From an uncultured Candidatus Saccharibacteria bacterium (lineage in GTDB: Bacteria > Patescibacteriota > Doudnabacteria > UBA920): 64,000 nt of DNA. The position numbers were made by a program, and so were the translations under genes. The stretch lies in the NCBI GenBank assembly GCA_964600695.1, contig CAZRKK010000001.1, forward strand, positions 168,647-232,646, given 5' to 3'. The stretch's first letter is position 1, and every line of letters begins with the position of its first letter. The notes beneath the pieces were generated by a model that saw only the letters and a list, made by a program, of their open reading frames with translations, searched no databases and was not told the origin of the DNA. Positions 29,786-51,403 of this stretch are shown piece by piece.

Positions 29786-29878
<93 letters not shown>

Positions 29879-32386: not shown

Positions 32387-32474
<88 letters not shown>

Positions 32475-35558: not shown

Positions 35559-36869
35559 TTAGAGCTTTAGGCTCCTGATTGACTTGGTAGTTTTAGAATT
35601 AACCACATTGGCAAAACCTAATTTTTTGGCTTCTTTTTGTCGCTTCTCTACCTGAGACACAGTTCTAATTTCCCCTAATAAACCAATTTCACCAAAAGCG
35701 GTTGTCGCTTTTGGCCAAGCTTTACCTTGATAAGAAGACAAGATAGCCATCATCACTGGTAAATCTGCGGCACGCTCTGTAACCTTAAAACCACCGGCAA
35801 TATTTACGTAAACATCTTGGTTACCCAAATTGACCCCTAATGTCTTTTGCATGATCGCAATCAATAACTGAAGACGATTAACATCAAAACCCGATGCTAC
35901 TCTCCTAGGATAACTTGCATTGGTAGTATTTGTTAGAGCTTGAATTTCTACCAACAAAACTTTATTCCCCTCAAGTAGCGTTGCGACGCAGCTACCTGGT
36001 AAAGCTTGATCCTTATGTTCCAAAAACATTGCCGCAGGGTTATCTATTTCGACTAATCCTGTATCGCGCATCTCGAATACACCAACTTCGCCAATGCTTC
36101 CAAATCGATTTTTACTACTGCGCAATATTCGTAAATTACCTAGTCTCTCACCTTCTAAGTACAACACACAATCAACCATGTGCTCGATGGTTTTTGGTCC
36201 TGCCAAAATTCCTTCTTTAGTAACATGACCGATTAGTATAATTGTAGTGTGGGTAGATTTTGCTAAGCGGATTAAAGAATTAGTAACGAAAGATAATTGC
36301 GCAACACCACCAGTGACTCCACCTGCTTCTTCGCTATACATTGTCTGAACGGAGTCGATAATAACAACTTCTGGGTTTAATTGTTGGATTGATGCAATGG
36401 CAGATTCTAAATTTGTTTCCGCTAAGACCATCACATCCTGCCTTAACCCTAACCGCACATTGCGCATCGCAATTTGTTGGGCAGATTCTTCGCCAGAAAC
36501 ATACAAAGCAGTATGCTCTGTGCCGACTAATAAATTTGCTAATTGAAGAGCCAAGGTGGATTTACCAATTCCCGGATCACCACCAAGCAAAACAACAGAA
36601 CCAGTAACTAAACCACCACCCAAGACAACATCAAATTCATCTATCCCAGTAGATAGACGTTGTACTTTGTTCTGTTTAACTTCAGAAAGTAGGACCGGTT
36701 TGATCCCAGCAAATCCCCGCCCAGATCCAGAGCCAAGAGTGGATTTTTTTGTGGACTGAATAGTCTGTTCTGCAAAGGTATTCCATTGCTCACAAGAAGG
36801 GCATTTACCTTGCCAACGAGGGCTAGAAAACCCACAGTTTTCGCATATAAAAACGATTTTGGTACTCAT
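35559..36869 (-). CDS. radA: DNA repair protein RadA/Sms
   Basis: An N-terminal C4 zinc finger (CENCGF...CPSCEQW), a RecA-like Walker A (GDPGIGKST), a KNRFG motif and a Lon-like C-terminal domain are present. Confidence 0.85.
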   Translation of the reverse strand: MSTKIVFICENCGFSSPRWQGKCPSCEQWNTFAEQTIQSTKKSTLGSGSGRGFAGIKPVLLSEVKQNKVQRLSTGIDEFDVVLGGGLVTGSVVLLGGDPGIGKSTLALQLANLLVGTEHTALYVSGEESAQQIAMRNVRLGLRQDVMVLAETNLESAIASIQQLNPEVVIIDSVQTMYSEEAGGVTGGVAQLSFVTNSLIRLAKSTHTTIILIGHVTKEGILAGPKTIEHMVDCVLYLEGERLGNLRILRSSKNRFGSIGEVGVFEMRDTGLVEIDNPAAMFLEHKDQALPGSCVATLLEGNKVLLVEIQALTNTTNASYPRRVASGFDVNRLQLLIAIMQKTLGVNLGNQDVYVNIAGGFKVTERAADLPVMMAILSSYQGKAWPKATTAFGEIGLLGEIRTVSQVEKRQKEAKKLGFANVVNSKTTKSIRSLKL

Positions 36870-36910
36870 AAAATAATTATACCTTATGAGTGATAAAATC
36901 TAGATAAAGT

Positions 36911-38050
36911 TTATTGAAGTATATGGTAATAGAGGGAGCCGTCTTGATTATTGCGGAAGAAGAGAATATCTCCATTTAGGCTTAGAAATGGCTCTGCCAC
37001 ATCAACATCTGTTCCTGGAGGGAATTCAGTTTTTTCTCCACTGCTGATTTCTATTTTATAAACTGAGTCTGTAGTTACACCTTGTCCAGCAATTCCTGAA
37101 GTTGGCACACCCGCAACAATATATGAACCGTCCTTTGACCAAACAGCTTTTGATGTAGAAGTTGCCACACCTAGATTTCGAATTTCCCCACTGGCAAGGT
37201 CTGACACCCAAAGATTAAACTTTTGAGTAGATGGATCTAAGCGGCTAAACAAAAACTTCTTGCTGTCAGGTGACCATAACACACCTTTGTTATAACCATC
37301 ACGAACTACAGACTTAAAAGTCTTCCCATCTATGCTAACTGAATTGATTGTATTTTTTGTTTGATCAGATATCTGATTACGATAGAATAGAATAGTTTGC
37401 CCATCCGGAGAAACAACAATCTCGTTATCAGGTTCGTATAAATCGGTAAGCATCTGGTAATTATTTGTGTCTGGATCAGAAATATTTAAGGTAGCCTTAC
37501 CGTCGCTTCCTACCCACACAAATAATATTTTATTTCCACTAGGGACCCAGTCTAAACTTTTTACCTGTGATGGCAAATCAATATAGTTACCTGTATCAGG
37601 ATTATAATAACTCCACTGCTTGCTAATACCACTGCCAGATTCAGCTATATAACTATTACCCACTGCTGGCCATAAAATTCGAGAAATATTAGTTTTTGCT
37701 GGAACAGTGAGTTCTGTTTTATCACTTAATAATACTGTGCTGCCTGTTACTGACATATTAGTTCGGAACAATTGACCTTGACGATTAAAGTAAGCAATCC
37801 CATCACCTTGAAAGAACAAAGCTGGAGTTATTACTGCTTCGTCTGTTAACTTAGTAGCTTGACCACTACTAGGGGTTTCTTCGGTTGGATCTTCTTGGGG
37901 AACTTCCTCGGTTGGCTCTTCTACCACGACAGGGGTTTCTTCGGTTGGAGTTGTATCGTCTTTAGATGATCTACTCCAAATAATAAATCCCAGGGTTCCG
38001 ACTATAAGGATAAATATTCCTCCTAAAATGGCGATAGCTTTTTTATTCAC
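36911..38050 (-). CDS. TolB-like PD40 beta-propeller protein with an N-terminal TM anchor and an acidic Pro/Glu/Thr linker
   Basis: PD40-type repeats are present: SPDGQTILFY, WSPDSKKFLFS and WSKDGSYIVAG. It has an N-terminal signal anchor. Confidence 0.55.
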   Translation of the reverse strand: MNKKAIAILGGIFILIVGTLGFIIWSRSSKDDTTPTEETPVVVEEPTEEVPQEDPTEETPSSGQATKLTDEAVITPALFFQGDGIAYFNRQGQLFRTNMSVTGSTVLLSDKTELTVPAKTNISRILWPAVGNSYIAESGSGISKQWSYYNPDTGNYIDLPSQVKSLDWVPSGNKILFVWVGSDGKATLNISDPDTNNYQMLTDLYEPDNEIVVSPDGQTILFYRNQISDQTKNTINSVSIDGKTFKSVVRDGYNKGVLWSPDSKKFLFSRLDPSTQKFNLWVSDLASGEIRNLGVATSTSKAVWSKDGSYIVAGVPTSGIAGQGVTTDSVYKIEISSGEKTEFPPGTDVDVAEPFLSLNGDILFFRNNQDGSLYYHILQ

Positions 38051-38136
38051 GATTCTATTTGTTTAATTTTGTTTCAATGTGTGCCAATGGCCAAAGAATG
38101 ATCTTCAAACCTTTTATATATTATAGCACAATATGC

Positions 38137-39369
38137 TTAAAACTTACTTATATCAGTGCAAACTTCATTAAAAGTAGAAGCAAATTCATTACCACTCCAC
38201 CAGTCTATAGCTTTTGTGGCCAAATTAGAAAAGAAGCCAGTACCCAGCCCTGAGGTTTCGCATATATACCAAAATATACTAGCTACAAAAGCTAAAAATA
38301 TAATGATGGCTAGTAAATCAAATAATAACAGGAAGATTTGCATTGGTTTTTTAGATAAGCCTTGCAAATACCCTTGAGTAGGAAAAACTACCCCAGCAAA
38401 CATATAAAAACTCATAAGTATTAACATTGGAATCCCTATTATCCATCCTAATATACTGAAGGTCATCCCGACAGCAATTATCAACAAAAAACCCATTAAT
38501 AAAAGCATGGAAGCTTTCTCTGCATGGAATCTAGCTTTCTTATGATGTTCTGCTGCTCCTTTAACATCTCCTTTTCTTAAGGCATTAGCAGCAGAGCCAA
38601 GTTCAAACGTACAGTCTACAGCATCACTTAAACCTAAATACATAGCTATCTCTAACAGTAAACCGATTAACAGGCCGATACCTAGAGTTTCTGGAGCAGA
38701 AGCAACTGCAGCACCACCAACTACCGTAGCTGCAGTCCCGCTAACCGCAGCGGAACCAGCTCCTGCAGCAACTTTACCTCCGACCTCTGCAGCACCTCTG
38801 ACAGCGAGCTTAGCGCCTTGTTTACCTAACTCTTCCCCAACCTTTTTGCCAACCTTTTTGACTGCTTTTTGTGCTGTCTCTTTAGCAGCCTTCTTTATAG
38901 CATCCTTGCTAACATCTTTAACTTCTTGACCGAACTTATCCTTAATTTTGTCTTTGGCGTATTTCTTTATCCTGTCTTTAGCTTCTTGCTTAATGCGTTC
39001 TCTGTTTTCTGGAGTATCAGCAGCAACACCTTTTATATTATCTAAGGCAGATTTTGCTTTTCCTATTGCGTTGCCAGCTTGCTTTGCCAAACCACCTTTT
39101 TGCGCTTGTTGATAAGAAGATTGAAACTCCGGATCTTTTTGACCATACTTTTCATTAGCAAAATTATAACCACTGTCATCATTCGTTGGTGCTTGCCTTG
39201 GGTTATTAGACTGATAACTATCTTCGTCTGTTAAAGGATTGTTCTGATAAGAACCTTGAGCATTTTGCCCAGGCACGTATTCGTCAGCATCTGACCCGCG
39301 AAAATTTGTTCCATCAAGTAACATCATATCTTTAAAATAATGGGCCCCACCAGCACTAGAGGGACCCAT
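38137..39369 (-). CDS. membrane protein of the T4SS-like locus: a Q/N/Y-rich N-terminal region, a Lys-rich coiled-coil middle and a C-terminal multi-TM region
   Basis: A Q/N-rich disordered N-terminus is followed by a KxxK-rich segment and then an Ala/Gly-rich and hydrophobic region with 4 or more TM helices. Confidence 0.5.
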   Translation of the reverse strand: MGPSSAGGAHYFKDMMLLDGTNFRGSDADEYVPGQNAQGSYQNNPLTDEDSYQSNNPRQAPTNDDSGYNFANEKYGQKDPEFQSSYQQAQKGGLAKQAGNAIGKAKSALDNIKGVAADTPENRERIKQEAKDRIKKYAKDKIKDKFGQEVKDVSKDAIKKAAKETAQKAVKKVGKKVGEELGKQGAKLAVRGAAEVGGKVAAGAGSAAVSGTAATVVGGAAVASAPETLGIGLLIGLLLEIAMYLGLSDAVDCTFELGSAANALRKGDVKGAAEHHKKARFHAEKASMLLLMGFLLIIAVGMTFSILGWIIGIPMLILMSFYMFAGVVFPTQGYLQGLSKKPMQIFLLLFDLLAIIIFLAFVASIFWYICETSGLGTGFFSNLATKAIDWWSGNEFASTFNEVCTDISKF

Positions 39370-39376
39370 GGTAGCT

Positions 39377-41227
39377 TTATTTTATTTCTGCTAAATCTTC
39401 TTTGCTTTGTTCAATTTCTAGCAACTGTTTTGGGTCCGTGGTAATAATCTGGTCTTCCACATAAGATGCATATATCTTGATAGCTGCGTGCTTTAACCCA
39501 GCAAAGAAAATTCCTTCTCCAACATCACTTTCTAATAATAGATATTTCTCCCCTTCGGTTAAAAAGAAAGTTTCGGCAACAATATCTACAGCCGCAGGGC
39601 TTTGTTTAAGCAATAATTGAATTGAAGAGTTGGTAACAATTGGTTTACCATAACTACTAGCCATAAAGTCGGCTACGTCTTGAGTGATAGTAGTCAATCC
39701 TAAGTAATACTTACGAGCCCGCTTAGCGATACCAAATACGAATCGAGCAGAATCTTCATGTTGCATCATAATCCAAGCCTCATCTAATACCAAAATTCGG
39801 CGCTTTAATTGACTTCGCACCACATTCCAAATATGCCCCAAAATAATGTACATTGCGATTGGTCGAAGAGAATCTTCTAGGTCTCGAATAGAAAATACTA
39901 GTAGCTGATTTTGTAATACTACGTTAGTTTGGTTATTTAATAATCCTGCGAAAGTTCCTTCGGTAAATTTACCTAATCTCATAGCCAAAGATTCGCCACC
40001 GACCATTCCACTTAAAATTTCGATAAGATCGCTCATAACTGGCATTTCGACTGTCGCAAAATCAGATGTTTCGTTTATATCTTTCTTAGCGTATGTTTGC
40101 CACATAGCTTTATCTAAAATGGCTTCTTCTGTCGGATCAAGCTTACCTAAGACCAAGCCCATCAAGCCGATTAAATTAATAATGGCGCTACGAAGAATAT
40201 CACCCTTGTCTTCATCTTCTAAGCCAATTGGCAAATCGAATGGATTGATACGAAAATCTGAGTTTAAAGAAATATTTAAATAAGTTCCGCCAACAGCTTC
40301 GGCTAAATGCTGATATTCATTTTCTGGATCCACGACTATCACTTCGATACCCACCATCAATGAGCGGAGGATTTCTAATTTTACAGCATAAGACTTTCCT
40401 GCCCCAGATTTTGCAAACACAACAAAGTTAGCATTTTCCATCTGAAATCTATCGAACAAAATTAAACTGTTATTATGACGGTTAATACCATACAAAATTC
40501 CATCGTTACCGGTTAGATCCGAAGATACAAATGGAAAAGTACTAGATAGCGGGCTAGTGTTAAGATTGCTAGCAACATCAAGATCATCGATTGCAAGCGG
40601 TAATGTAGAATTATACCCTGCCTCCACAGCCAACAAAGCTCTTTTTGTCACTACTAATTTGGCACCCAAAGCACTCTCTAAAATTTTGGAGTTCTTGTCT
40701 AATTCTTCTAAGTTTTCGCAATAAAGGGTGAAGTACAACGCAAAACGGAAGAAATGTTCTACACCTTGCTGAAGTTCGTCACGCAATTCTTCTACGTCAT
40801 GATAAGCGGTTTCTAGCAAAGGATTACGAGCTAAACCTTTTTCTTGTTCAATAGTCATCTGAGAACCAATTTCACCCACCTTGCTACGCAATTTTTTTAG
40901 AACCATTCCGGAGTCGATTGGATAAATAAACATCGAAACATCCAAAGCACTCTCGGAGTTTATAATAAACGATAACCAATTTGTAGACAAGAATCGAGGA
41001 TATGCCAAAACAAAGAAGCTACGTCCAAATTTACCGTTTAGTTCAAAATACGAATTAGAAAATTTTAAACTACTTGGGGCAAGTAAATCTTTAAGAGTAG
41101 TAACACCTTCGCGATACTCTTTTTCGACTTGAGCCAACTTTCCCTCGGCAGAAATCTGCCCCTTAAGGTGCTCTAACTCTTCCTTCTTTTTGTCGAGCTC
41201 TGATTTGTTAAATGAAAATAAACCCAT
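39377..41227 (-). CDS. VirB4/TraE/CagE-family T4SS ATPase, C-terminal ATPase portion (616 aa)
   Basis: Walker A (FAKSGAGKSY) and Walker B (RILVLDEAWIMM) are present. The YPRFLSTNWL segment is typical of Gram-positive-type VirB4 proteins. Confidence 0.8.
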   Translation of the reverse strand: MGLFSFNKSELDKKKEELEHLKGQISAEGKLAQVEKEYREGVTTLKDLLAPSSLKFSNSYFELNGKFGRSFFVLAYPRFLSTNWLSFIINSESALDVSMFIYPIDSGMVLKKLRSKVGEIGSQMTIEQEKGLARNPLLETAYHDVEELRDELQQGVEHFFRFALYFTLYCENLEELDKNSKILESALGAKLVVTKRALLAVEAGYNSTLPLAIDDLDVASNLNTSPLSSTFPFVSSDLTGNDGILYGINRHNNSLILFDRFQMENANFVVFAKSGAGKSYAVKLEILRSLMVGIEVIVVDPENEYQHLAEAVGGTYLNISLNSDFRINPFDLPIGLEDEDKGDILRSAIINLIGLMGLVLGKLDPTEEAILDKAMWQTYAKKDINETSDFATVEMPVMSDLIEILSGMVGGESLAMRLGKFTEGTFAGLLNNQTNVVLQNQLLVFSIRDLEDSLRPIAMYIILGHIWNVVRSQLKRRILVLDEAWIMMQHEDSARFVFGIAKRARKYYLGLTTITQDVADFMASSYGKPIVTNSSIQLLLKQSPAAVDIVAETFFLTEGEKYLLLESDVGEGIFFAGLKHAAIKIYASYVEDQIITTDPKQLLEIEQSKEDLAEIK

Positions 41228-41228
41228 A

Positions 41229-41915
41229 TTATTTTTGTAAATCTTTAATCGTCACCTTAGTTAATTGCTCTGCGTCGATATTTGGGCCAGAAGCAAAATT
41301 GTAAGAGTTATAAACTAATTCAATTAATTGGTCGGTGTTAAGCTTTACGACTCGTAAACCAGAGCTAGATAACGACGCCGAGACGGTATTAGCTCTTTCG
41401 TCTAACTGCTTTTTGTATGTGACTAAATTAGCTTCACGGTCCGTGACAGCCTTGGTTTTACCGGTTCCAAATATACGGCTAAAAATACTGGTCGCAGCTG
41501 GGTTAATACTGGTATCGTAAGGAACGATAACATAAAAGTTCTTACTCATAACATTAGCTGACTCTACTAATCGGTCAATAAACTCTATATATTCCTGAGT
41601 TTGCATTCTAAGAAGTTCATTAGTCTGCTTTTCCATCATCACTTTAAGTCTTTCGGTATATTCGGCTATGTCCATTTTGCGAGACTGCATCAAAATTTGA
41701 ACATGAAATTCCAAAGAATTCAAAAATCTTTGGTAACTATACACCAAAGCATTTTGCTCCTCTTCGCTCTTTAAATCAAAATTAGTACTAGACACAGCCA
41801 ACACTGCACGCAATGTGCCATTGTCCATAATAATCACATCATCACGTATTTCTGCGAGACGTAAAAATTGCTGAGTTGGACTGCCAATTTGTTTTTTATT
41901 TTTTGTTATTGCCAT
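41229..41915 (-). CDS. VirB4 N-terminal domain encoded as a separate 228-aa ORF
   Basis: DDVIIMDNGTLRAVLAVSSTNFDLKSEEEQNALVYSYQRFLNSLEFHVQIL follows the VirB4/PrgJ N-terminal pattern (dG.l.....v.g.nf.l.s.ee). Its stop codon sits 1 nt before the ATG of the ATPase ORF. Confidence 0.6.
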   Translation of the reverse strand: MAITKNKKQIGSPTQQFLRLAEIRDDVIIMDNGTLRAVLAVSSTNFDLKSEEEQNALVYSYQRFLNSLEFHVQILMQSRKMDIAEYTERLKVMMEKQTNELLRMQTQEYIEFIDRLVESANVMSKNFYVIVPYDTSINPAATSIFSRIFGTGKTKAVTDREANLVTYKKQLDERANTVSASLSSSGLRVVKLNTDQLIELVYNSYNFASGPNIDAEQLTKVTIKDLQK

Positions 41916-41921
41916 TTGATT

Positions 41922-42383
41922 TTATTTAGCACGATCAGTTTCTCTATTTTTTTTAATTCGCTCGATCAGACTTAACTCTTCGGTTTGCTCTTTTTGTAAT
42001 AAATAATTTAACTCTTTAATCTTTACAGCGGTACCTTTTAAGTCCTTTGGTGCCTGTTTTTCTTCGGAAATTATTGGAATGTCCATTTCGACAGATTCTT
42101 TTCCTTGTTTATGGTAAACGTACAACTTTGGACCAAAAAGGTAACTAAAAAAGTTTCCTGCGCTGGCATAGAGTGGCCGCCCGTTCAATTTACCAAAAAC
42201 CAAAGCCAACGCCGGTAATCCTGTCAGAACTGCGGTTGTAATTGTAACTGCTAAGTTTTTACTTATTGTGTAAATAACAAAAGTAAACACGGCTGCACCA
42301 AAAATTATGGCAAACTGTTTAAAGGTTAGGCCGGCAATGATTTTATCTTCGACGTCTGTAAATTGTGGGACTGGAAATTGCAT
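41922..42383 (-). CDS. VirB3/PrgI-like small 2-TM T4SS protein
   Basis: The N-terminal EDKIIAGLTFKQFAIIFGAAVF (the LT.rQ motif) is followed by two TM helices, at 153 aa. It sits immediately upstream of VirB4. Confidence 0.55.
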   Translation of the reverse strand: MQFPVPQFTDVEDKIIAGLTFKQFAIIFGAAVFTFVIYTISKNLAVTITTAVLTGLPALALVFGKLNGRPLYASAGNFFSYLFGPKLYVYHKQGKESVEMDIPIISEEKQAPKDLKGTAVKIKELNYLLQKEQTEELSLIERIKKNRETDRAK

Positions 42384-42397
42384 ATATATTATATCAT

Positions 42398-43354
42398 TTA
42401 AAAACGATTAACCTTGAGAGAAAGGAGAATGTCGGCTATAAATTCAAATTCTTCTTGTGATAAAGCCAAATTATCTTTTTTACCCATTAACATACTCTTA
42501 CCGTAATTCAAATAATCTTGATACAAAGGGCTCTGCTCAAGATTTGTAACAACCTGAAAGTAACCGTACTGAGCCGCTAGTTCATTGATAGTCTTATGAA
42601 ATGTTTCTCGATTCTGTTGATGTAGTGCTGAGCTAGTGAGATTACTGATATCCTCAAACTTACTAAGAACCATTGTATTCATAGACGAAGATACGTCTCT
42701 AATCGGAGATTTAGGAATAGACAGCGGATTAACAGGCGGCATAGGGACAGTCTCTGTAGGCTTAGGACTTGAAGGTGGCATAGGTATCGAACGTGGCCTG
42801 ATCGGAGCAGCTTGAGAATGCATTGGCATCGGCGCAGAAATGGGTCGTGGTGCGGTTTGTGGTGCTGCTGGTGATGGAGCTGATTGGAAGGTTAGAGGGT
42901 CCTGTTTTTGATCTGAAAGTTGATTAGGTAAATTACTAATATGCGACAAAGACGAGCCACCTAATGGCTTTGGTGCAGTAGCAGCTGGTGGAGTAGAAGC
43001 CACTGGCGGTATTGGAGATACTGCTGGCACCGACCTAGTTAGTGGCACTGGCCTTGTTGGTGGCATTGGCTTAGTTGGCGCGGATGGTGTTGGTGGTGTG
43101 ACTGGTGTGGTTGGTGGCATCGCCACAACTTGTGGTTGCTGTTGCGGTTGTGGTTGTTGTTGCGGTTGTTGTTGCGGTTGTGGTTGAGCGACAGGTTCTG
43201 GCTTTGGTTTTTGTAAAATTTCTTCTAGCTCTGCAATTTGCTTATCATTCATCAATTCAATTAAAGCCATCCATTCATTTTTTTCTTGCTCGCTTAAAAC
43301 AGTAGCACTTCTTACTAAGTTTTGTATCTGTTTTAATTTTTGTTCGTTTAGCAT
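42398..43354 (-). CDS. Pro/Gln-rich low-complexity protein
   Basis: A (PQQQ)n tract and a long PT/PS-rich region are present, with no TM helix. Structured N- and C-terminal ends flank the tract. Confidence 0.45.
   Translation of the reverse strand: MLNEQKLKQIQNLVRSATVLSEQEKNEWMALIELMNDKQIAELEEILQKPKPEPVAQPQPQQQPQQQPQPQQQPQVVAMPPTTPVTPPTPSAPTKPMPPTRPVPLTRSVPAVSPIPPVASTPPAATAPKPLGGSSLSHISNLPNQLSDQKQDPLTFQSAPSPAAPQTAPRPISAPMPMHSQAAPIRPRSIPMPPSSPKPTETVPMPPVNPLSIPKSPIRDVSSSMNTMVLSKFEDISNLTSSALHQQNRETFHKTINELAAQYGYFQVVTNLEQSPLYQDYLNYGKSMLMGKKDNLALSQEEFEFIADILLSLKVNRF
43131..43195. repeat. imperfect tandem trinucleotide/nonamer repeat (gttgtggtt/gttgttgcg units) encoding the PQQQ tract
   Basis: The tandem run reads gttgtggttgctgttgcggttgtggttgttgttgcggttgttgttgcggttgtgg. 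Confidence 0.6.
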
Positions 43355-43358
43355 TTTT

Positions 43359-44339
43359 TTAACTTTTAGTTTGGCCCTTGTTTCTGTTCTTGAGTTCTTC
43401 TAGTTTAGTTCGAATTTTTAATTCTTTAAGTTTTTGCTCGGCACGTTTTTCTCTACTAACAGCCTCTTGTTTTAAGTCTATGTTAGTCGGAATGTCGAAC
43501 ACCAAACCTTTTTTAGGTTGAGTGCTTAGATCTAGATCTTTTTGAGGGGCTATTTTGTAAGGAGATTGGGGTGTTTGAGGTAGTTCAGGTTCTGGAATTA
43601 TGTTCTGATCTTTTATTGGTGGTATTTCTTGCGGAGGTGTTATTTCTGGTTCTTCAGAGATTGGCTCTTCTGCTACAATTGGCTGTTCGAGCTCTGCCCC
43701 GTACTCTTCTTCAAACTTTTTTACTGCCCAATCTTGAAACTCTCGAGTGTCCTCTGGTGACAACTTTTCTGGGAGCTCTTCATAAAGATTAACTAAAGAA
43801 TCGACTCTATCATAAATTCTAAGAATACTTTGCAAGGCCTTGCGCTGACCAATAGAAAGAATCTTTAAATTAGGGCCAGTATTTATATATTTCATCTCAC
43901 CTAAAGCATCTTTCATTTCTGGATTAACCATGGATTGATAATCTAAAATCCAGTTTGCAATAGTCGGAGTTACCTGCTTCCCGTTTACATTTATTTTTTG
44001 ATCACCTAATAATTCTTGATGATTTACTAAAATTGCTTTCAATTTATAGAGAAAATCTATTTGCACATCAACATATTCTAACAGTTCAAAATAATCTGCT
44101 AATCTACTATCTAGATCAAAATCAGGAATTTGATAAGCTGCTAGAATAGACTCTTTGATGACCCCCAATAGACGTTCGGAATCCAAAGCATTCATACGTA
44201 AATAGTTGAGGCGTAAATAATCCGTACGAGGTAACTGGATTTGACTATCTCTTGCAGCCGCAACTAAAACTTCCCATGCTCTTTGAGCGTCACGGAATTT
44301 TATAGCTTCTTCAATTTTTAATTGAATTTCTGGGATCAT
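43359..44339 (-). CDS. hypothetical cytoplasmic protein with an acidic Pro/Glu-rich C-terminal region
   Basis: The 326-aa protein has no TM helix. It is translationally coupled to both neighbours. Confidence 0.45.
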   Translation of the reverse strand: MIPEIQLKIEEAIKFRDAQRAWEVLVAAARDSQIQLPRTDYLRLNYLRMNALDSERLLGVIKESILAAYQIPDFDLDSRLADYFELLEYVDVQIDFLYKLKAILVNHQELLGDQKINVNGKQVTPTIANWILDYQSMVNPEMKDALGEMKYINTGPNLKILSIGQRKALQSILRIYDRVDSLVNLYEELPEKLSPEDTREFQDWAVKKFEEEYGAELEQPIVAEEPISEEPEITPPQEIPPIKDQNIIPEPELPQTPQSPYKIAPQKDLDLSTQPKKGLVFDIPTNIDLKQEAVSREKRAEQKLKELKIRTKLEELKNRNKGQTKS

Positions 44340-47300
44340 ACAACTATATGGGGTTTAAAGATTCTTGCAACCCTTGGAGTAGCCACTTCAACCAAAGCAG
44401 AAGCAACGTGATTTCCAATTGAGTTGACTTCTTCAGGATTAGACTCAAACTTGCTTAAAATATGATCAGCAATAGGTCTGTCGATTTTCTGTCGCAAACT
44501 CTTAGACTTTTCTTTTGTATCGTAAGCTCTCAACTTTTCCTTAATTTTCGCATTAAACTGTTCAACTCCGTTACTGTCAGTATGAGTAACATCGCCCTTT
44601 TTCCACTCTGTAACCTCTTTAACCTTTTTGGTTTCCAAAACTTGCTGTTGTTGGGTAATCGTATTTAATATCCCACCACCGTTTGCTAAACTTTTTACTG
44701 CGTTAGACAAAGAAGTGTTGCCATTTTTTTCACTAGAATTAGATACTTCACGAATTATGTTAATTTGAGACTTCCCACTAACCTTTCCAAATTTTTCCTT
44801 AACAAACCCAGCGAGGTCTTCAACATTGTTTTTCTTTCCACTAGCCTTAAGCAATCTATCCAAAACTCCATTATCGGCCATCTGCTTAAAATGGGCTCTA
44901 GCAGCTGCCATATTATTCTCTTGCAAAGCTTTGTTAAAACCACTCTCTAGTTGATCATAATCAAGATCACCAAGATTTTTTTGAATATCACGAGCTTCGG
45001 AATCTTCTTTTGCCGCCAAGGCTTTGGAGAAAGGTCTTTCTCTGTATTGAGCCTTTTCGGCATCATCAGATGCTTCTTTCATATACCTCTTACGAACATC
45101 ATCATCCATAGTTCCGGTAAAGCCTAATTCAGTCCTTATGTTATTGTCATTCGTCAATACAACCGTGGCATCAGAAATATCTGCCGTAAGCTTGGCTTTT
45201 GTAGCATCGATATTTCTATTGAAGTCAGTACCCATATCATTTATATCAATGTCATTTAACCCATTAGCATCCGCGATTCCAATTGCAACATCAAGGGTAT
45301 TTTTATCATTTCGAAGTCTAGCAACTTTTGCCCGAGTGCCTGGTGTGCTATTTTGGGAATCCTCGGCTTCTGCCGCATTTAACTTTCCTTCAATATCAGA
45401 CAAGTTATCTCTTGCCATTTCGATATCCGCACGACCATTATTAAGAGCATTTAAATATCGTTGGTTAGTATTGAGATTAGTTGCCAATTCTCCCATATCT
45501 GAGTCATTACGAATTTCTGTAAATCGTTTCTTCTGCTCAGCCTGAGTCATTAATTTTTTAGAATCTTGACCCATAGCTTTCCAATACGCCATCTTCAATG
45601 GGAATAGTTTATTTTCACCCCACGGCTGGAATTTATCGGTAACGTCACTGAACTTTTCGGTAAAGCGCTTGTTCATCTCTTCCTTAGGATTATCAAACAA
45701 ACCCTTCTTTATTGCCTTACCAGCTTGAATAGGACGAGCAACGCCCATAATTGCTTTTTGTAAACCAGGGCGACCCTTTAACATTTTTGAACTAGCTAGT
45801 GCATCAGCCCCAGTATCCTTAGCCCACTTACCAGCTGCGAGAGCGCCACGTCCTGCTGCTGCAGGAACAGTCTTAGTAACAAAATCAAATCCCTTCTTGG
45901 CACCATCAACAATTTGCTTAGCACCAAATGTACCACTCTTTAAAGCGAAGTGCATACCAGCATAAAGGAAAACCAAAACAACAAAGTGAGAGATGATTGT
46001 AATGGCATACTCTGTAATTTCTTTGGCTGGATCCATACCAGCAAAAAGATAACTTGGATTTCTACCAGCTTCCACTGCATCACCAGAACGAGAAGCGAAA
46101 GTTGTTGCCATCAACGCTGTTATATTCAAGAAGAATGCCAAAATCGGAACAGTAAAAGCGTACTTAATAAACTGAGACCACCACTGATCAAAATAACTTT
46201 TTGTCTCAGGAAGTATGCGTGCTACATATGCCAAAGGTGAAACCATATACAAAAGCCACAAAGCCACGAGTCGGACTAAAATAAAAGCAATCAAAGCAAC
46301 AAACGAGAAGAAAGATGCTATGGCTAAAATTAACAGTACAATAGGTTTTGTAATATCACTTGCACTTAATTGAACAGTAAAGTTACTGTTTTCGGTTATA
46401 TTTTCTGCGAAACCACCAGAGCTATCTTGTCCTCTAAAGAACTTAATCGGATCAACCATTAACTTTTGACCCAATGCTTCTATAACTTTACTTTCAGCAG
46501 GTAAAAATTGGGATTGCACAGTATCAGCTATCCCTACAACTCCTTGGGCAATGACTAAACTAAAGTTAACTAACAAAGCCATTAACACAAGCCATAAAAT
46601 AAATCCGCGTGACTTACCAGCATCATCAACTTGAAATAAGGTACGCAAACCCATCCACAACAAAGCCAAAATAAAACCAATGTTTGCTACGTTACGTAAG
46701 ATAATCCATCCAGGGTAAATAAAGTTAACAAACTGATCTTCGTATGGTCTGATTTTTAACAATGCATTTAGTATCGGTACTAATATAATCGCAAAAATCC
46801 AGTACAACACACTGGTCATCAAGAGCACTAAATAAGAGATGACCTTACGAAGGAAATTAAATAAGTCGCTACCAGCAGTTGTCTCAGACTTAGCTTCATC
46901 AGAGGTAGTGGTTTGGGATATTGGTTCTGCAAATCCAAACTTTGCAAAATTAGGATCTTTGCTACACTTTTCCTTATCTTCTGGTTTTACATCTGCCTCA
47001 CAAGCTGCAATGATATCCTTAATATCTTTATACACCTCAACAGTAAACTTTTGTAAATTTCCAGAGCCAGCAACTAAAATAACAGGGTTAACATAGCCCC
47101 CACCACCAATATATGCTTGTGGACCAGCAGTGCCTGTAACCCCAATTATACCTGGCAAGGCAACAAACTCTGCTTGACCGATCATCTTTCCGCTACTAGT
47201 ATTTGTAGTTGCAGAACTTGTAGCAGGTTTGTCGGTGGATGTTTTTGTGGTTTTATTCTTCCACGCAGCAGATTTTAAAATAGGTTTAAAATCACCTGGT

Positions 47301-48406
47301 ATTTGACCTGGGGCTGCTTCATCACCATTACCACTACTATCACCTTTCCTAAAAACCACCTTAGAGCAATTCGTCCCAATCCAACCCGCCTCACAGGCTA
47401 TAGGCACTATACTCTTTGCGGTATCGTAGTAACTAAAATAAACTGTACTATTTTTATAGATAGGTTGATAAGTAATCCCTGCTTGCTTTCCATCATCCTT
47501 CTTGGGTAGACTGAATTTCTGCTCCGGAACTAATTTTTTTGAACCCCACTCTAAATGAACAGCATCCAAACCAGCTGTGGTTCCAAAATTTAAATCACCG
47601 TCTGTCTCTAGTACTCGATATTTTGATCTTAAACCAGCACCACCTTCTTTTGGTTTAATACTAATAGGGATTGTTTGATAGTCAACTACTTCCCCTTCCT
47701 TTACATTAGTTTGACTATTACCACTCGCTCCTACTTCAGGCAAGGTTGTTTCTTCTGGACTATCAGACTTAGCCTTGTCGTGCTTCATGTTAACCTTACC
47801 AATCGAACCAGTTGAGGAACTTAAGGTTCCATTTTTGAAAAAATAACCATAAACACAGTAATTTGTCTGGTAAGTTCTAAGGCTAGTGTCTGATAAATTT
47901 TCTATACTCAAATTTTTTATTCTCGCCCTAAACATGTTTTTCTCTGGTACGAACTCTGCATCATAACCAGTTAAACCATTTCTTGCCACTAAAGAAGTTG
48001 CGCATGTACCTGCTACATTTTCACCATATAAAAATGGTGCAAAACTATATCCTGCCCCGTTATTTGCAGTCTTACAAGCATCGGAAGTTGCTTGATCTAC
48101 AACTACCTCCATATACATATCAAACTTTTCTTTTGTCCCGACCACAGATTTATTTGCTAGGACCCGATAACTCTTAAGGCCAGAAATGATAGTTCCTACG
48201 GAAATATTACAACTAGCCCCTCTAATTGAAGGGATAGATGGCAAGCTCAACTGCGCCTCAGCAACTTTCACCCTGATAGGTAAAACAGGCAAAAATAAAG
48301 AAGCAACGAGAATCCCTAAGATAAATCTTTGGAGAATTCCCCTGCTTATTTTTAATGAGTTTGGGGTTAAAAATTTAAGTAATTTTTGTATTGATTTCTT
48401 GGTCAC
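44336..48406 (-). CDS. giant VirB6/TrbL-like polytopic membrane protein (1356 aa) with a large N-terminal extracellular region, a roughly 6-TM core and a long charged C-terminal domain
   Basis: A signal/TM segment starts the protein. About 500 aa of hydrophilic sequence is followed by a cluster of 6 to 7 hydrophobic helices from aa 520 to 830. The final roughly 500 aa are a coiled-coil-rich charged domain. This architecture resembles expanded VirB6 homologs. Confidence 0.5.
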   Translation of the reverse strand: MTKKSIQKLLKFLTPNSLKISRGILQRFILGILVASLFLPVLPIRVKVAEAQLSLPSIPSIRGASCNISVGTIISGLKSYRVLANKSVVGTKEKFDMYMEVVVDQATSDACKTANNGAGYSFAPFLYGENVAGTCATSLVARNGLTGYDAEFVPEKNMFRARIKNLSIENLSDTSLRTYQTNYCVYGYFFKNGTLSSSTGSIGKVNMKHDKAKSDSPEETTLPEVGASGNSQTNVKEGEVVDYQTIPISIKPKEGGAGLRSKYRVLETDGDLNFGTTAGLDAVHLEWGSKKLVPEQKFSLPKKDDGKQAGITYQPIYKNSTVYFSYYDTAKSIVPIACEAGWIGTNCSKVVFRKGDSSGNGDEAAPGQIPGDFKPILKSAAWKNKTTKTSTDKPATSSATTNTSSGKMIGQAEFVALPGIIGVTGTAGPQAYIGGGGYVNPVILVAGSGNLQKFTVEVYKDIKDIIAACEADVKPEDKEKCSKDPNFAKFGFAEPISQTTTSDEAKSETTAGSDLFNFLRKVISYLVLLMTSVLYWIFAIILVPILNALLKIRPYEDQFVNFIYPGWIILRNVANIGFILALLWMGLRTLFQVDDAGKSRGFILWLVLMALLVNFSLVIAQGVVGIADTVQSQFLPAESKVIEALGQKLMVDPIKFFRGQDSSGGFAENITENSNFTVQLSASDITKPIVLLILAIASFFSFVALIAFILVRLVALWLLYMVSPLAYVARILPETKSYFDQWWSQFIKYAFTVPILAFFLNITALMATTFASRSGDAVEAGRNPSYLFAGMDPAKEITEYAITIISHFVVLVFLYAGMHFALKSGTFGAKQIVDGAKKGFDFVTKTVPAAAGRGALAAGKWAKDTGADALASSKMLKGRPGLQKAIMGVARPIQAGKAIKKGLFDNPKEEMNKRFTEKFSDVTDKFQPWGENKLFPLKMAYWKAMGQDSKKLMTQAEQKKRFTEIRNDSDMGELATNLNTNQRYLNALNNGRADIEMARDNLSDIEGKLNAAEAEDSQNSTPGTRAKVARLRNDKNTLDVAIGIADANGLNDIDINDMGTDFNRNIDATKAKLTADISDATVVLTNDNNIRTELGFTGTMDDDVRKRYMKEASDDAEKAQYRERPFSKALAAKEDSEARDIQKNLGDLDYDQLESGFNKALQENNMAAARAHFKQMADNGVLDRLLKASGKKNNVEDLAGFVKEKFGKVSGKSQINIIREVSNSSEKNGNTSLSNAVKSLANGGGILNTITQQQQVLETKKVKEVTEWKKGDVTHTDSNGVEQFNAKIKEKLRAYDTKEKSKSLRQKIDRPIADHILSKFESNPEEVNSIGNHVASALVEVATPRVARIFKPHIVV

Positions 48407-48438
48407 AGAAGGTAAAATTGACTGTAAAACTTATAAAT

Positions 48439-48447
48439 ATTATACCA
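48439..48447 (-). promoter_or_regulatory. extended -10 element TGGTATAAT (minus strand), a candidate internal promoter for the VirB6-like gene
   Basis: The plus strand reads attatacca, which is TGgTATAAT on the minus strand. It lies 32 nt upstream of the ATG at 48406. Confidence 0.4.
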
Positions 48448-48480
48448 TATCGATCCTCAAAAACCCAAATATTTTGGACA

Positions 48481-48521
48481 AATAAAAAACCACTCATTTT
48501 ATTAAAATTAAATAAGTGGTT
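48481..48521 (-). terminator. intra-operon rho-independent terminator or attenuator (minus strand)
   Basis: Read on the minus strand, the hairpin aaccacttatttaattttaataaaatgagtggtt is followed by ttttttatt. Confidence 0.45.
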
Positions 48522-48541
48522 TTGAAGAAATTTATGATACT

Positions 48542-50212
48542 TTATTCACCTCTAGGATTGAATTTGGCCGAAGGACTTGGACCACGAGGGTTAATTGAGG
48601 TAACACCTTTTACAGAACCTTCTTCACTAATGACACCATTATTGTTAAACTGTGCTTTTGGCAAATTAGAAGCTAACTCACCAATCGCACCATTCATGGC
48701 CTGGAACCCAGCTTCCTTAAAGATCTTTGATGAACTCTTACCTCCAGTTAATAAATTACTAAGGAAGTTACTAGCAACGTCGGAAAGGAAGTTAGCATAG
48801 AATGGTAAGTTATCGCTCTTCAGCTGAGAACCTTGGTCTAGATGTTGTTTTACAAAGTTATTTAACTGATCACCGACAAATGAAGCAGGTGAATCGATTG
48901 CTTTACAAATATCAATTACAGGCTCAGCATCTTGTGATGGTAAATCCTTGTACTTCTTTTCGATCTCATTGAAGGCTGCCTGAGCTTTATCCAACTCGGC
49001 TTTAGTTGTCTTTTTAGCTTTATAAGCCTTTTGTAATTTAGAGAGAACATCTGCTGCAGCTACTAACTCGTTAGTAGCGGTTTCGTACTTAGTATCAATT
49101 TGTTGTTGTAATTCTAACGAACCAGAACAATCACGTGGTGGGGCAAAGCCATTACTTTGATCCACCTCAGCTTGAGCAGATTGTTGTCCGGCTGCTTTAA
49201 CTTTTAGTGCTTGATCTTGAGCTGTTTGGAACTGAAAAGCAGTACTTGCCTGCTCACTGCCAAACGCTGCTAAACACTTCAAAGAATCCATATTCTCTAC
49301 ATCTAGCTGACCAATGCCGTTACATTGAGAGCCTAAGTAGTCTTGGGCTTTAGTTGAAGCAAAAGCTTGGGCAATTTTTGCTTTTTGAGGAATTTTGTCA
49401 CTTTGAATAAGTGAACGCATCATCATTTGAGTCCGAGCATCACCTTTAAAATTCTCGTTGATATACTTCATGGAATAAACCTGAGTAGCTACAGCATCAC
49501 CATAAGCGAGGTAATCATCAATCTTATACTTCTCTACCATGCTGTTTACTAATTTTGTAGTCAGGTTTTTATTCAAATTTAGAACAAGTTTAACCATAAA
49601 GGCTTTTAACACATCCTTTACGCTTGCATTCTGACGAGCTTTTAAATCTTCGGTAATCTTTCTAAGGGATTCACTCACTTTAGTATATTTGTCTTGCTCC
49701 CTTTGAACATCTTGACCCATAGTCAAAGTTTGACTAGAAATCTCGCTAAGTAATCGAATATAAATATCTACACACTCTTTAGCTGCAACTGCTTTAACTA
49801 TGCTTTTTGATAACTTTGTAGATTCCCCAATTCCTCCCCCAATTATGCTTAAGAACGAACTACTAGAAACGTCAATAATTGTATCCACCTTGTCTGCGGA
49901 ATCAACAGCCTTTAATATTTTGTCGCAAGTCTCTCCTACTGCACCACGAGCAGCCTTTATAGTACCCTCTGAAACACCTGGTGTATAAATTCTTAAATTA
50001 AGTGGCGACAATGGTGATTCAATTGTCGGCACAGCTAAGGCCTGTGCATAAGAAGACTTCGCGGAAAATAAAAACGCACCACTCATTGAAGTAGTAACTA
50101 AAACAAAAATTAAAGTAGCAACTACTTTATTTTGGATATTATTATTTTTACGAAGTAAATTCATTTTTGTTTTTCGACTATAAAGAAATTTGATACTTAG
50201 ACTCGATTTCAA
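48542..50212 (-). CDS. secreted or membrane-anchored hypothetical protein (556 aa) with a coiled-coil-rich mature part
   Basis: It has an N-terminal signal anchor (VVATLIFVLVTTSMSGAFLF...AQA). The start may instead be the internal Met at about 50164, which would remove the overlap with the upstream gene. Confidence 0.5.
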   Translation of the reverse strand: MKSSLSIKFLYSRKTKMNLLRKNNNIQNKVVATLIFVLVTTSMSGAFLFSAKSSYAQALAVPTIESPLSPLNLRIYTPGVSEGTIKAARGAVGETCDKILKAVDSADKVDTIIDVSSSSFLSIIGGGIGESTKLSKSIVKAVAAKECVDIYIRLLSEISSQTLTMGQDVQREQDKYTKVSESLRKITEDLKARQNASVKDVLKAFMVKLVLNLNKNLTTKLVNSMVEKYKIDDYLAYGDAVATQVYSMKYINENFKGDARTQMMMRSLIQSDKIPQKAKIAQAFASTKAQDYLGSQCNGIGQLDVENMDSLKCLAAFGSEQASTAFQFQTAQDQALKVKAAGQQSAQAEVDQSNGFAPPRDCSGSLELQQQIDTKYETATNELVAAADVLSKLQKAYKAKKTTKAELDKAQAAFNEIEKKYKDLPSQDAEPVIDICKAIDSPASFVGDQLNNFVKQHLDQGSQLKSDNLPFYANFLSDVASNFLSNLLTGGKSSSKIFKEAGFQAMNGAIGELASNLPKAQFNNNGVISEEGSVKGVTSINPRGPSPSAKFNPRGE

Positions 50213-50915
50213 TTTTGATACTAGAAATTTTATCCATCAGACTAAACAGTGCACTACTGTATTGAGCTAAACCACTATCATCGCCGGAAAAAGATTCTGC
50301 TAATTTAGAAATTGTCTGGTAATAAAAAATGTTGTACTTATGATAATTTACTAGTTCAGTCGGTACAGCAATTTCTGACATGTCTTTAATAATATCTTTC
50401 GCTTGGGCCGAAGTTTTTGCATACAAAGCTTTGTCACTGCTATTTAAGTTTGCGAATAATTCTGCAGTGTCATAATAGCTTTCGATTTGCAAAATCTTAT
50501 CTGCATAATTTTGAATTGTTTGCGTGTTAGTTGGAACAACTGTTTTAATAGAAATTAAATCTAATTGTTCTTGACTAAACAATTGTTCGGCACTTGGTAC
50601 TTCGTCTAATCCGATTGCGGCACCAAGCACTGCACCATCTGCTTGACCACGATCTAATAATGCAAATTGATTTTCTAATTCTTGTTGATATTGTTCTTCA
50701 TCTATCACACCAGCATCTGCGTAAACTTGATTACGAACTTGATCGTAAGTTAACATGGGTTGTGTTTCTTCTTCTGCCTGAGAGAACATCGCTGAGACAC
50801 TAATGTTTGTTCTTGGAATAACCAGTAAACCAAAAACAAATACCGCCGCTAACATAATGAAAGCGTGGTTAAGTGTAAATCCTAATTCTTGTAATTTTGT
50901 TTTTATTTTATTCAT
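50178..50915 (-). CDS. bitopic membrane protein (245 aa) with a VirB8-like topology (N-terminal TM helix plus a periplasmic domain)
   Basis: The TM helix is AFIMLAAVFVFGLLVIP. Topology and size are reminiscent of VirB8/PrgL, but there is no sequence motif to confirm it. Confidence 0.4.
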   Translation of the reverse strand: MNKIKTKLQELGFTLNHAFIMLAAVFVFGLLVIPRTNISVSAMFSQAEEETQPMLTYDQVRNQVYADAGVIDEEQYQQELENQFALLDRGQADGAVLGAAIGLDEVPSAEQLFSQEQLDLISIKTVVPTNTQTIQNYADKILQIESYYDTAELFANLNSSDKALYAKTSAQAKDIIKDMSEIAVPTELVNYHKYNIFYYQTISKLAESFSGDDSGLAQYSSALFSLMDKISSIKIEIESKYQISL

Positions 50916-50943
50916 TTTGTTTTTGATGTTCTATCTAGATACG

Positions 50944-51303
50944 TTAGGATGTTCCTATTTGAGAAATTGGAAAGATCGGATACATCGGGCAAGGAATTGG
51001 TGGTACTAAAAAAGTTCCAAGAACAAGAGTACCTTTAGTGTATAAATTGAAGCGCTCATAAACTTGAGAAGTTGGAACAACTGTAATCGGTAAGGGAGAA
51101 CCTGTCATATAATTATTAACAATCGTATGAGCCACAGGACAAGTCGGTGTTGGTGGTACAAATTCTTCTACAGAACCAGCAAAAGGGATACCAGAAGGTA
51201 TCACAAATTGTGCTTGAGTTTTGTACGCTTGACCAGGCAAAATAAGAAAAAGCCCAGCTAATAAAACTACCGAAGCTATTCTTTCGAGATATTCTTTATA
51301 CAT
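50944..51303 (-). CDS. small secreted Pro-rich protein (119 aa), the first gene of the T4SS-like operon
   Basis: A signal peptide (VVLLAGLFLILPGQAYKTQA) is followed by a roughly 90-aa Pro-rich mature region with two Cys. Confidence 0.45.
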   Translation of the reverse strand: MYKEYLERIASVVLLAGLFLILPGQAYKTQAQFVIPSGIPFAGSVEEFVPPTPTCPVAHTIVNNYMTGSPLPITVVPTSQVYERFNLYTKGTLVLGTFLVPPIPCPMYPIFPISQIGTS

Positions 51304-51336
51304 ATTCGATTGTATTTTTATTTTTGTTTCGATTTT

Positions 51337-51356
51337 GTTCTACACATTGGTAGAAC
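51337..51356. promoter_or_regulatory. inverted repeat GTTCTAC-N6-GTAGAAC in the leader of the T4SS-like operon (candidate operator)
   Basis: gttctacacattggtagaac forms perfect 7-bp arms. It lies between the -10 element and the first start codon. Confidence 0.45.
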
Positions 51357-51374
51357 TTCTAAACTTGTAGTATT

Positions 51375-51403
51375 ATTATAGCAGAAATTACTAAATTTTG
51401 CAA
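51375..51403 (-). promoter_or_regulatory. consensus sigma70 promoter (minus strand) TTGCAA-N17-TATAAT driving the T4SS-like operon
   Basis: On the minus strand, ttgcaa (plus 51398-51403) is followed by a 17-nt spacer and tataat (plus attata 51375-80). The leader is about 65 nt. Confidence 0.6.

Follow-up and report, generated by a model that had tools for sequence, protein, structure and literature searches.

Which task does a type IV secretion system (T4SS) perform when it sits among housekeeping genes, with neither a relaxase nor a coupling protein beside it? We asked this of a locus in a 64-kb (64,000 nt) stretch of DNA from an uncultivated bacterium, hereafter the window, in which 11 co-directional open reading frames (ORFs) run on the minus strand from position 51303 down to 36911. 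To judge from its sequence, the locus is a member of the chromosomal, non-conjugative T4SS clade of Patescibacteria, carried in a Doudnabacteria-like genome, and the predicted ectodomain of its VirB6 protein is a discrete recombining cassette that is swapped between near-identical strains. Our preferred reading, to which we give a probability of roughly 70%, is a VirB4-driven machine for host contact that descends from the MPF-FATA conjugation machines of single-membrane bacteria and is no longer conjugative.

As a system the locus is not new. T4SSs of this kind have been catalogued across Patescibacteria by Quinonero-Coronel et al. 2025 (PMC12102498), and Wang et al. 2023 (PMC10633639) found the saccharibacterial version, the T4SS of Southlakia epibionticum (SEML1_0006-0019), to be essential for epibiotic growth on the host. 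A first-pass annotation of the same DNA had called the assembly essentially uncharacterized, which these two studies contradict; its guesses of DNA uptake and host interaction are speculations already present in the literature.

Window ORFs of at least 120 aa, plus most smaller unannotated ORFs, were scanned against Pfam, and the locus proteins were scored against Pfam and NCBIfam profiles with the curated cutoff of each family applied. The comparison set comprised 80 related virB4 loci (L numbers); distant homologs were collected by iterative profile search, and contigs encoding a VirB4 identical to that of the window were fetched for strain comparison (L082, GCA_044227685.1, and L083). Transcription units were derived from conserved sequence signals.

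A VirB4 motor with TrsD, PrgI and VirB6

The locus is made up of the following genes, listed in the direction of transcription.

50944-51303, minus strand: g1, 119 aa
50178-50915, minus strand: g2, 245 aa
48542-50164, minus strand: g3, 540 aa counted from ATG (the maximal ORF extends to 50212, 556 aa)
44336-48406, minus strand: g4, 1356 aa
43359-44339, minus strand: g5, 326 aa
42398-43354, minus strand: g6, 318 aa
41922-42383, minus strand: g7, 153 aa
41229-41915, minus strand: g8, 228 aa
39377-41227, minus strand: g9, 616 aa
38137-39369, minus strand: g10, 410 aa
36911-38050, minus strand: g11, 379 aa

The gaps between them, in order from g1 to g11, measure 28, 13, 135, -4, 4, 14, 6, 1, 7 and 86 nt. 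The extent, shared direction and mostly tight coupling (most gaps are -4 to 28 nt) had all been described correctly, and the count of about twelve genes becomes 11. The first-pass annotation had also recognised a T4SS-type apparatus by its VirB4, PrgI/VirB3 and VirB6 proteins, all three of which score above their profile cutoffs.

The motor, g9, is a VirB4 ATPase of the CD1110/MPF-FATA type. It matches the NCBIfam CD1110-family VirB4 profile at 2.6e-101 (340 bits, cutoff 325) and carries a Walker A motif, AKSGAGKS (272-279), and a Walker B motif, ILVLDE (478-483), both conserved among relatives. Its best solved relative is Thermoanaerobacter VirB4 (4AG5, 1.9e-42), and TrwK is matched at 7.5e-6. 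Because g9 covers only positions 156-728 of the VirB4 model, while g8 supplies positions 3-137 and is a separate ORF in 75 of the 75 loci where both genes are visible, part of the VirB4 N-domain is encoded separately, as in pGO1 and pIP501. The ATPase of the earlier description therefore stands, whereas the Gram-positive-type N-domain placed within it lies partly in g8. This protein is TrsD/TraD-like: the NCBIfam TrsD profile is matched at 2e-7 with 31 bits, under the curated cutoff of 200 for that family, g8 matches the N-termini of three VirB4 models (including positions 98-236 and 3-137), and a protein identical to it has the precomputed Pfam assignment PF26593 (TraC-like).

PrgI/VirB3 is represented by g7, which has two transmembrane (TM) segments (Pfam PrgI 1.5e-8, 35.5 bits, cutoff 27) and homologs in 72 loci. 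The largest protein, g4, matches Pfam TrbL/VirB6 over residues 580-777 (2.6e-9, 37.6 bits, cutoff 25.9) and has at least six TM segments between residues 527 and 822; this core is conserved in 60 loci.

Outside the candidate phyla radiation (CPR), the closest relatives of the window's VirB4 are CD1110-family proteins of Firmicutes and Actinobacteria, at 28-35% identity. The MPF-FATA systems to which such proteins belong (pGO1 TrsC-TrsD-TrsE; pIP501, pCF10; the CTn2 CD1110 family) share with the locus the order VirB3-like, TrsD, VirB4 and the lack of an outer-membrane core, but have in addition a type IV coupling protein (T4CP), a relaxase, a VirB8-like protein, a VirB1-type hydrolase and residence on mobile elements. 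The homology of VirB4, TrsD, PrgI and VirB6 to these conjugation genes speaks for an ordinary integrated conjugative element or its remnant. However, the Pfam scan found no T4CP, VirB11, relaxase or integrase among window ORFs of at least 120 aa, and GC content is even through the window (0.34-0.42). The first-pass annotation had likewise seen no VirD4, VirB11 or relaxase and had concluded that the locus is not a conjugative element, which is sound within the window. With no coupling protein or relaxase nearby, conjugative DNA export is unlikely.

Other parts of a canonical T4SS were also looked for. We found no VirB2-like pilin in the window (no PF18895 or PF04956 match, and no small two-TM ORF when all unannotated small ORFs were checked), and no VirB1-type hydrolase among g1-g11 (Pfam, NCBIfam). 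The locus proteins matched none of the VirB7, VirB9 and VirB10/ComB envelope families (Pfam, NCBIfam), as expected for a monoderm. A LysM-CHAP cell-wall hydrolase at 55756-56643 on the plus strand, 4.4 kb upstream of the locus, is the sole VirB1-like candidate in the window.

One cluster from outside the CPR was recovered with the VirB4 relatives. On a non-mobilizable 898-kb Bacillota replicon (L081, Pontibacillus sp. NZ_CP062975.1, 344328-370088), a compact group beside flagellar genes comprises a pilin-like gene, genes for 779-aa, 116-aa and 274-aa proteins, a VirB4 gene (34.6% identical) and a DD-metalloendopeptidase gene, and its vicinity has no annotated relaxase; the group may represent a cousin of the CPR machine outside the CPR.

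Signs of an old machine at a fixed chromosomal site

By Pfam scan, the window is a housekeeping chromosome, with genes for aminoacyl-tRNA synthetases, mreBC, PBP2, gatAB and a Clp ATPase, together with recX, recO, recG, radA, ksgA, pcrA, a comF-like gene, two tRNA-Ser genes and an ECF sigma factor gene. On one side the locus is flanked by ksgA, and on the other by comF, recG and radA. Its nearest VirB4 relatives come from metagenome-assembled genomes labelled Candidatus Doudnabacteria or Patescibacteria group, in agreement with the CPR-like organism proposed in the first pass; at about 59% identity follow Moran-, Portnoy-, Sungi-, Uhr- and Azambacteria.

Doudnabacteria-like genomes keep the order pcrA-ksgA-(DUF192)-g1..g11-radA. 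Beyond them, loci of Moran-, Portnoy-, Sungi- and Uhrbacteria keep the core order VirB6-g5-PrgI-TrsD-VirB4-...-PD40, and seven families (g2, VirB6, g5, PrgI, TrsD, VirB4 and the PD40 protein) hold their relative positions across CPR classes. In other CPR classes ksgA and pcrA are also often upstream, radA is non-adjacent, and the proteins between VirB4 and PD40 in the more distant loci match no Pfam family; g1, g3, g6 and g10 are limited to close relatives.

VirB4 evolves more slowly than the products of the adjoining genes. Over three bands of increasing divergence its median identity is 87%, 76% and 59%, compared with 65%, 54% and 43% for RadA and 62%, 41% and 35% for KsgA at the same loci. 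Between strains, virB4 genes that differ at 58-141 of 1851 nt encode an identical protein. The gene order, the conservation of VirB4 and these amino-acid-silent differences thus point to an old, vertically inherited, strongly constrained and non-mobile machine. Retention of the same chromosomal neighbours across class-level distances, and a VirB4 more conserved than housekeeping neighbours, also argue against a conjugative element or its remnant, which we regard as very improbable.

The Patescibacteria survey agrees with this placement. In its dataset of 2,474 virB4 genes, Patescibacteria VirB4 is monophyletic and related to MPF-FATA; TrsD is the commonest companion of virB4, with PrgI and VirB6 nearby, VirB8 and VirB1 are seldom found, and hardly any relaxase occurs; virB4 commonly has ksgA in its vicinity, and the context typical of class ABY1 contains comF, recG and radA (PMC12102498). 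The locus resembles that clade, as described there, in its VirB4 with a separate TrsD, its close PrgI and VirB6, the lack of a relaxase or T4CP nearby, and its chromosomal ksgA and comF-recG-radA flanks. It differs in that no VirB2-like pilin, VirB8 or VirB1 homolog is found in the locus and in that g3, g6 and g10 are lineage-specific.

A cassette-like VirB6 ectodomain that varies between strains

The predicted layout of g4 is a signal anchor, a 475-aa ectodomain, a polytopic core (about residues 521-830) and a 525-aa cytoplasmic tail. Two of these parts vary strongly between strains.

46870-48282, minus strand: hypervariable ectodomain cassette of g4, about aa 42-512
45589-44317, minus strand: second variable block, in the C-terminal cytoplasmic domain of g4, extending to the g5 start

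Of the contigs with an identical VirB4, L083 has a g4 identical to that of the window. In L082, TrsD, VirB4 and PD40 are 100% identical to the window's proteins, g10 is 99% and PrgI 98% identical, but g4 is 1478 aa long and its ectodomain shares about 25% of its residues with the window's, compared with 87-100% in the membrane core. Nucleotide similarity over the ectodomain ends at 48282 and 46870, the same two points whether the window is aligned with L082, L001 or L087. The L082 ectodomain is instead 94% identical to that of L001, although the L001 backbone differs by about 12%. Two deep ectodomain classes, one with 8 Cys and about 475 aa and the other with 4 Cys and about 549 aa, thus segregate on near-identical machines. 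From these shared breakpoints, the ectodomain is best described as the discrete, recombining cassette introduced above. The second block gives no nucleotide alignment to L082 and has 22-54% amino-acid identity, compared with the 87-100% of the membrane core. We found neither repeats nor template copies like those of diversity-generating retroelements behind the variable cassette; the only repeats were those of the Pro/Gln (PQ) tract of g6.

A comparable pattern has been described for the extended VirB6 proteins of Rickettsiales. In Anaplasma phagocytophilum, a conserved polytopic core carries large, strain-variable hydrophilic extensions while the rest of the T4SS is conserved, but there the variation lies mainly in tandem-repeat number in the C-terminal regions of several paralogs of a diderm pathogen (PMC3556328). 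Here, by contrast, a single gene exchanges entire non-repetitive domains. Neither strain-level VirB6 cassettes nor the split into transcription units described below is found in the consulted sections of the Patescibacteria survey (PMC12102498).

A far-reaching interpretation would make the machine a feeding conduit and its swappable ectodomain a determinant of host range. Strains that share an identical motor would differ in their ancient ectodomain alleles, which balancing selection would maintain and recombination would exchange, and the T4CP-less motor would pull host DNA, nucleotides or lipids inward. Were this true, the ectodomain allele of a strain would determine which host bacterium it can tap. 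We consider this combination unlikely.

Predicted transcription units and the link to radA

The locus had been read as one 14.4-kb operon behind a perfect TTGCAA-N17-TATAAT promoter. The signals below support a different arrangement.

51403..51375, minus strand: promoter P1, TTGCAA-N17-TG(c)TATAAT, upstream of g1; best site in the region, 10/12 plus TG extension
48523..48478, minus strand: intrinsic terminator after g3, a 14-bp hairpin followed by the U-run UUUUUUAUUU; dG -13.9 kcal/mol, z -4.35
48468..48439, minus strand: promoter P2, TTGGGT-N18-TG(g)TATAAT, upstream of g4
38128..38120, minus strand: promoter P3, extended -10 TG(c)TATAAT, right behind the g10 stop codon

The motif named for P1 is present, its -10 is perfect and the element, TTGnCA-N17-TGnTATAAT, also precedes the first gene in five relatives (L003, L005, L014, L055 and L036); its -35 is imperfect. 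Between g3 and g4, a hairpin with a T-run occurs at the g3 end in about 12 relatives, with stems unrelated in sequence, and the P2 -10 element TGGTATAAT is kept in 12 of 16 relatives at a constant distance to the VirB6 start codon. This conserved terminator and conserved TGnTATAAT promoter separate g1-g3 from g4-g10, so the locus is not one operon. P3 is conserved as well: TGnTATAAT or TGnTATACT stands at the same position in 13 of the 13 relatives examined. The likely units, as predicted from these signals, are g1-g3; g4-g10, reading through into g11; g11 from its own promoter; and radA.

All three locus promoters (51375-51383, 48439-48447 and 38120-38128) are conserved extended -10 elements of the form TGnTATAAT with weak or variable -35 elements, and promoters of this lineage may usually be of the extended -10 kind. 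Promoter-like sites overall were not above shuffled expectation (56 versus 49 ± 7.6), but P1 is placed in the intergenic region where a promoter of the locus would belong and, as noted, is conserved.

radA lies 41 nt downstream of the locus, in this strain with no terminator between, and recG, the comF-like gene, recX, recO and pcrA are nearby. Together with the lack of a T4CP or relaxase in the window, these neighbours favour an importer of DNA or nucleotides like ComB of Helicobacter pylori or Ced of archaea, in which VirB4 would power uptake of DNA from the host or the environment, feeding recombination or nucleotide salvage in an organism unable to make nucleotides. T4SSs without a coupling protein include ComB, and a VirB4-type ATPase without coupling protein or relaxase is what the locus shares with both ComB and Ced; ComB has, in addition, outer-membrane parts (VirB7, VirB9 and VirB10). 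The idea has already been raised for Saccharibacteria, and the comF/recG/radA context of ABY1 has been noted in print (PMC12102498).

Several observations weigh against uptake. A TATAAT (36876-36881, minus strand) stands 6 nt ahead of the radA ATG (36867-36869), and TATAAT or TAAGAT recurs 6-7 nt before the radA ATG in L001, L055, L059, L041, L010, L012 and L016, a spacing that suggests a leaderless or near-leaderless radA mRNA. Most relatives also have a terminator between the PD40 gene and radA. With its own TATAAT and this terminator in most relatives, the linkage of radA is one of gene order and not of an operon, and in other CPR classes radA is not adjacent. The Ced models fall far under their cutoffs here (CedB 47 bits, cutoff 700; CedD 19.6 bits, cutoff 600), reflecting only generic VirB4/HerA similarity. 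None of the locus proteins was recognised as DNA-binding or as a nuclease, and we know of no CPR T4SS for which an uptake function has been shown. Import by this locus is, on balance, rather unlikely.

We had also considered radA as a twelfth gene of the operon; as a general feature this was rejected, given the terminator in relatives and radA's own promoter.

Secreted, cytoplasmic and propeller proteins

No Pfam or NCBIfam family matched g1, g2, g3, g5, g6 or g10. Profile searches with the family alignments of g2, g3, g5 and g10 against all PDB sequences returned nothing under E = 0.07, g5, g6 and g10 had no relatives among solved structures or curated families, and a scan of the g2, g5 and g10 families member by member (Pfam/NCBIfam) yielded only a single VanX domain and, in some relatives of g2, TSP3 repeats.

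The first unit encodes three exported proteins. g1 has an N-terminal signal or anchor, contains 13% Pro and is fast-evolving; iterative profile search recovered two ORFs in two loci only, and a BLAST homolog in L055 is 46% identical. g2 is a bitopic membrane protein with a TM helix at 15-36 and, in its structure model, a C-terminal extracellular four-helix bundle at 131-241. It had been described as bitopic with VirB8 topology; the first part stands, but the model shows this bundle and not the NTF2 fold of VirB8. g3 is Sec-type secreted, lineage-restricted and, as modelled, elongated and all-helical, with invariant cysteines; a full-library profile search found no family beyond its own narrow one.

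These proteins bear on what the machine might move. Secreted g1-g3 and a variable surface part would suit the injection of proteins into a host bacterium so as to extract resources from it, as by effector-translocating T4SSs; such delivery is the usual role of non-conjugative T4SSs and has been speculated for Saccharibacteria. However, a coupling protein that could recruit cytoplasmic substrates is absent from the window, the profile scans of the locus proteins (Pfam, NCBIfam) recognised no domain of an effector, toxin or immunity protein, and the g3 family is narrow, unlike those of polymorphic toxins. Effector or toxin delivery is, like import, rather unlikely.

The same genes could instead serve the assembly of an appendage or attachment organelle without cargo, with VirB4 extracting membrane-anchored subunits (g1, g2 or others) for polymerisation on VirB6. 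VirB4 is the pilus-biogenesis ATPase in Gram-negative systems, where it dislodges pilus subunits for conjugative pili, and a T4CP is not needed for that step. The promoter-terminator unit of g1-g3 stands ahead of the machinery genes, as is often the case with major subunit genes, and an essential pilin array adjoins the Southlakia machine. On the other side, the window has no VirB2-like two-helix pilin, by profile or as a small two-TM ORF, and the models of g2 and g3 resemble bundle or hairpin proteins and not pilins. We judge an assembly-only role to be quite unlikely.

Among the remaining proteins, g5 is predicted to be cytoplasmic, with a helical N-terminal domain, a Pro-rich linker and a K/E-rich tail, and is kept across CPR classes directly upstream of PrgI (61 loci, including Uhr-, Moran- and Portnoybacteria). 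g6 is cytoplasmic, has a P/Q-rich central region and occurs in Doudnabacteria-like loci only; its PQ tract is encoded by short imperfect direct DNA repeats at 43024-43186 with 12-18 nt spacing. g10, found in close relatives only, has a disordered Q/N- and K-rich cytoplasmic half followed by 3-4 TM helices and two invariant Cys. Both the g6 PQ tract and the Q/N-rich N-terminus of g10 (38678-39193) vary in length and sequence among close strains.

Two g10 homologs stand in longer ORFs. In L023 (11859-13922), a 687-aa homolog has an additional VanX-type D-Ala-D-Ala dipeptidase domain (NCBIfam 1.4e-28), a feature reminiscent of Southlakia, where a DD-peptidase-fold protein follows VirB4. In L007 (5369-7987), the VirB4 ORF continues into a g10 homolog to give 872 aa. 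Unless this results from misassembly, the fusion would hint that VirB4 and g10 are physically linked.

The last gene, g11, encodes a membrane-anchored extracellular PD40/TolB-like beta-propeller (Pfam PD40 9.9e-13; TolB in PDB 8e-7); the first reading of the sequence had proposed a TolB-like propeller. Its homologs, found in 68 loci, other CPR classes included, keep their place downstream of VirB4.

Other genes in the window

Two features lie apart from the T4SS locus.

29786-29878 and 32387-32474: tRNA-Ser genes, flanking genes for an ECF sigma factor (30031-30585), a DUF5667 protein (30598-31779) and a PD-(D/E)XK endonuclease (31949-32347)
57854-59668, minus strand: 604-aa protein, probably at the surface, with repeat domains DUF11 and DUF7927; its neighbours include recO and CBS-domain genes

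The ECF sigma/DUF5667 pair is retained in L082 and L087, and the PD-(D/E)XK endonuclease ORF is absent from their called genes.

A proposed machine for host contact

We propose that VirB4, TrsD and PrgI would form a motor at the cytoplasmic face of a VirB6 membrane platform, with the large strain-variable VirB6 ectodomain exposed outside the cell. Secreted g1-g3, transcribed separately and probably more strongly, would build with this ectodomain the wall-spanning part that touches the host bacterium. The ectodomain cassette would set which surface is recognised, and the machine would then move material across the contact. Host-derived material, or Sec-exported proteins delivered to the host, is the more likely substrate.

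The closest functional precedent is Southlakia. Its cluster has the order VirB6-like, PrgI, TrsD-like, VirB4 on one strand, very large VirB6-like proteins with hydrophilic extensions, and no recognizable relaxase or coupling protein (PMC10633639), and comEC is dispensable there (PMC10633639, PMC12857230). Only for Southlakia has essentiality been demonstrated, and its cluster differs in having two VirB6-like genes, an NTF2-like protein of VirB8 type, six VirB2-like pilins in a divergent array and, downstream of VirB4, a peptidase and a lysozyme. The locus described here, by contrast, has a single VirB6, has g10 and a TolB-like propeller downstream of VirB4, and has no pilins in the window. For CPR T4SSs at large, reviews mention effector delivery or uptake as possibilities, and their role has been termed "completely unknown" (PMC11665869).

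Several points count against a host-contact machine. Function has been measured in this clade for Saccharibacteria only, and the organism here is uncultivated. The genome beyond the window could encode a coupling protein, a relaxase or VirB2-like pilins; in the published survey, VirD4-like genes are mostly distant from virB4 (PMC12102498). The roles suggested for g1-g3, g5, g6 and g10 are read only from topology, gene position and generic helical models. Ectodomain variability could stem from evasion of phages or of host defences rather than from host choice. Moreover, rapid change is not limited to exposed parts, as cytoplasmic g5 and g6 retain about 30% identity at a divergence where VirB4 retains 87%.

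Few machines are known to be indispensable to epibiotic life; the T4SS of the CPR is one of them, and this locus leaves that picture unchanged. Its motor is more constrained than neighbouring repair and ribosome-maturation genes, and its core set is fixed over class-level distances. The one lead that merits pursuit is the cassette-like ectodomain of VirB6, which offers a concrete handle on a possible role of the T4SS in host specificity.

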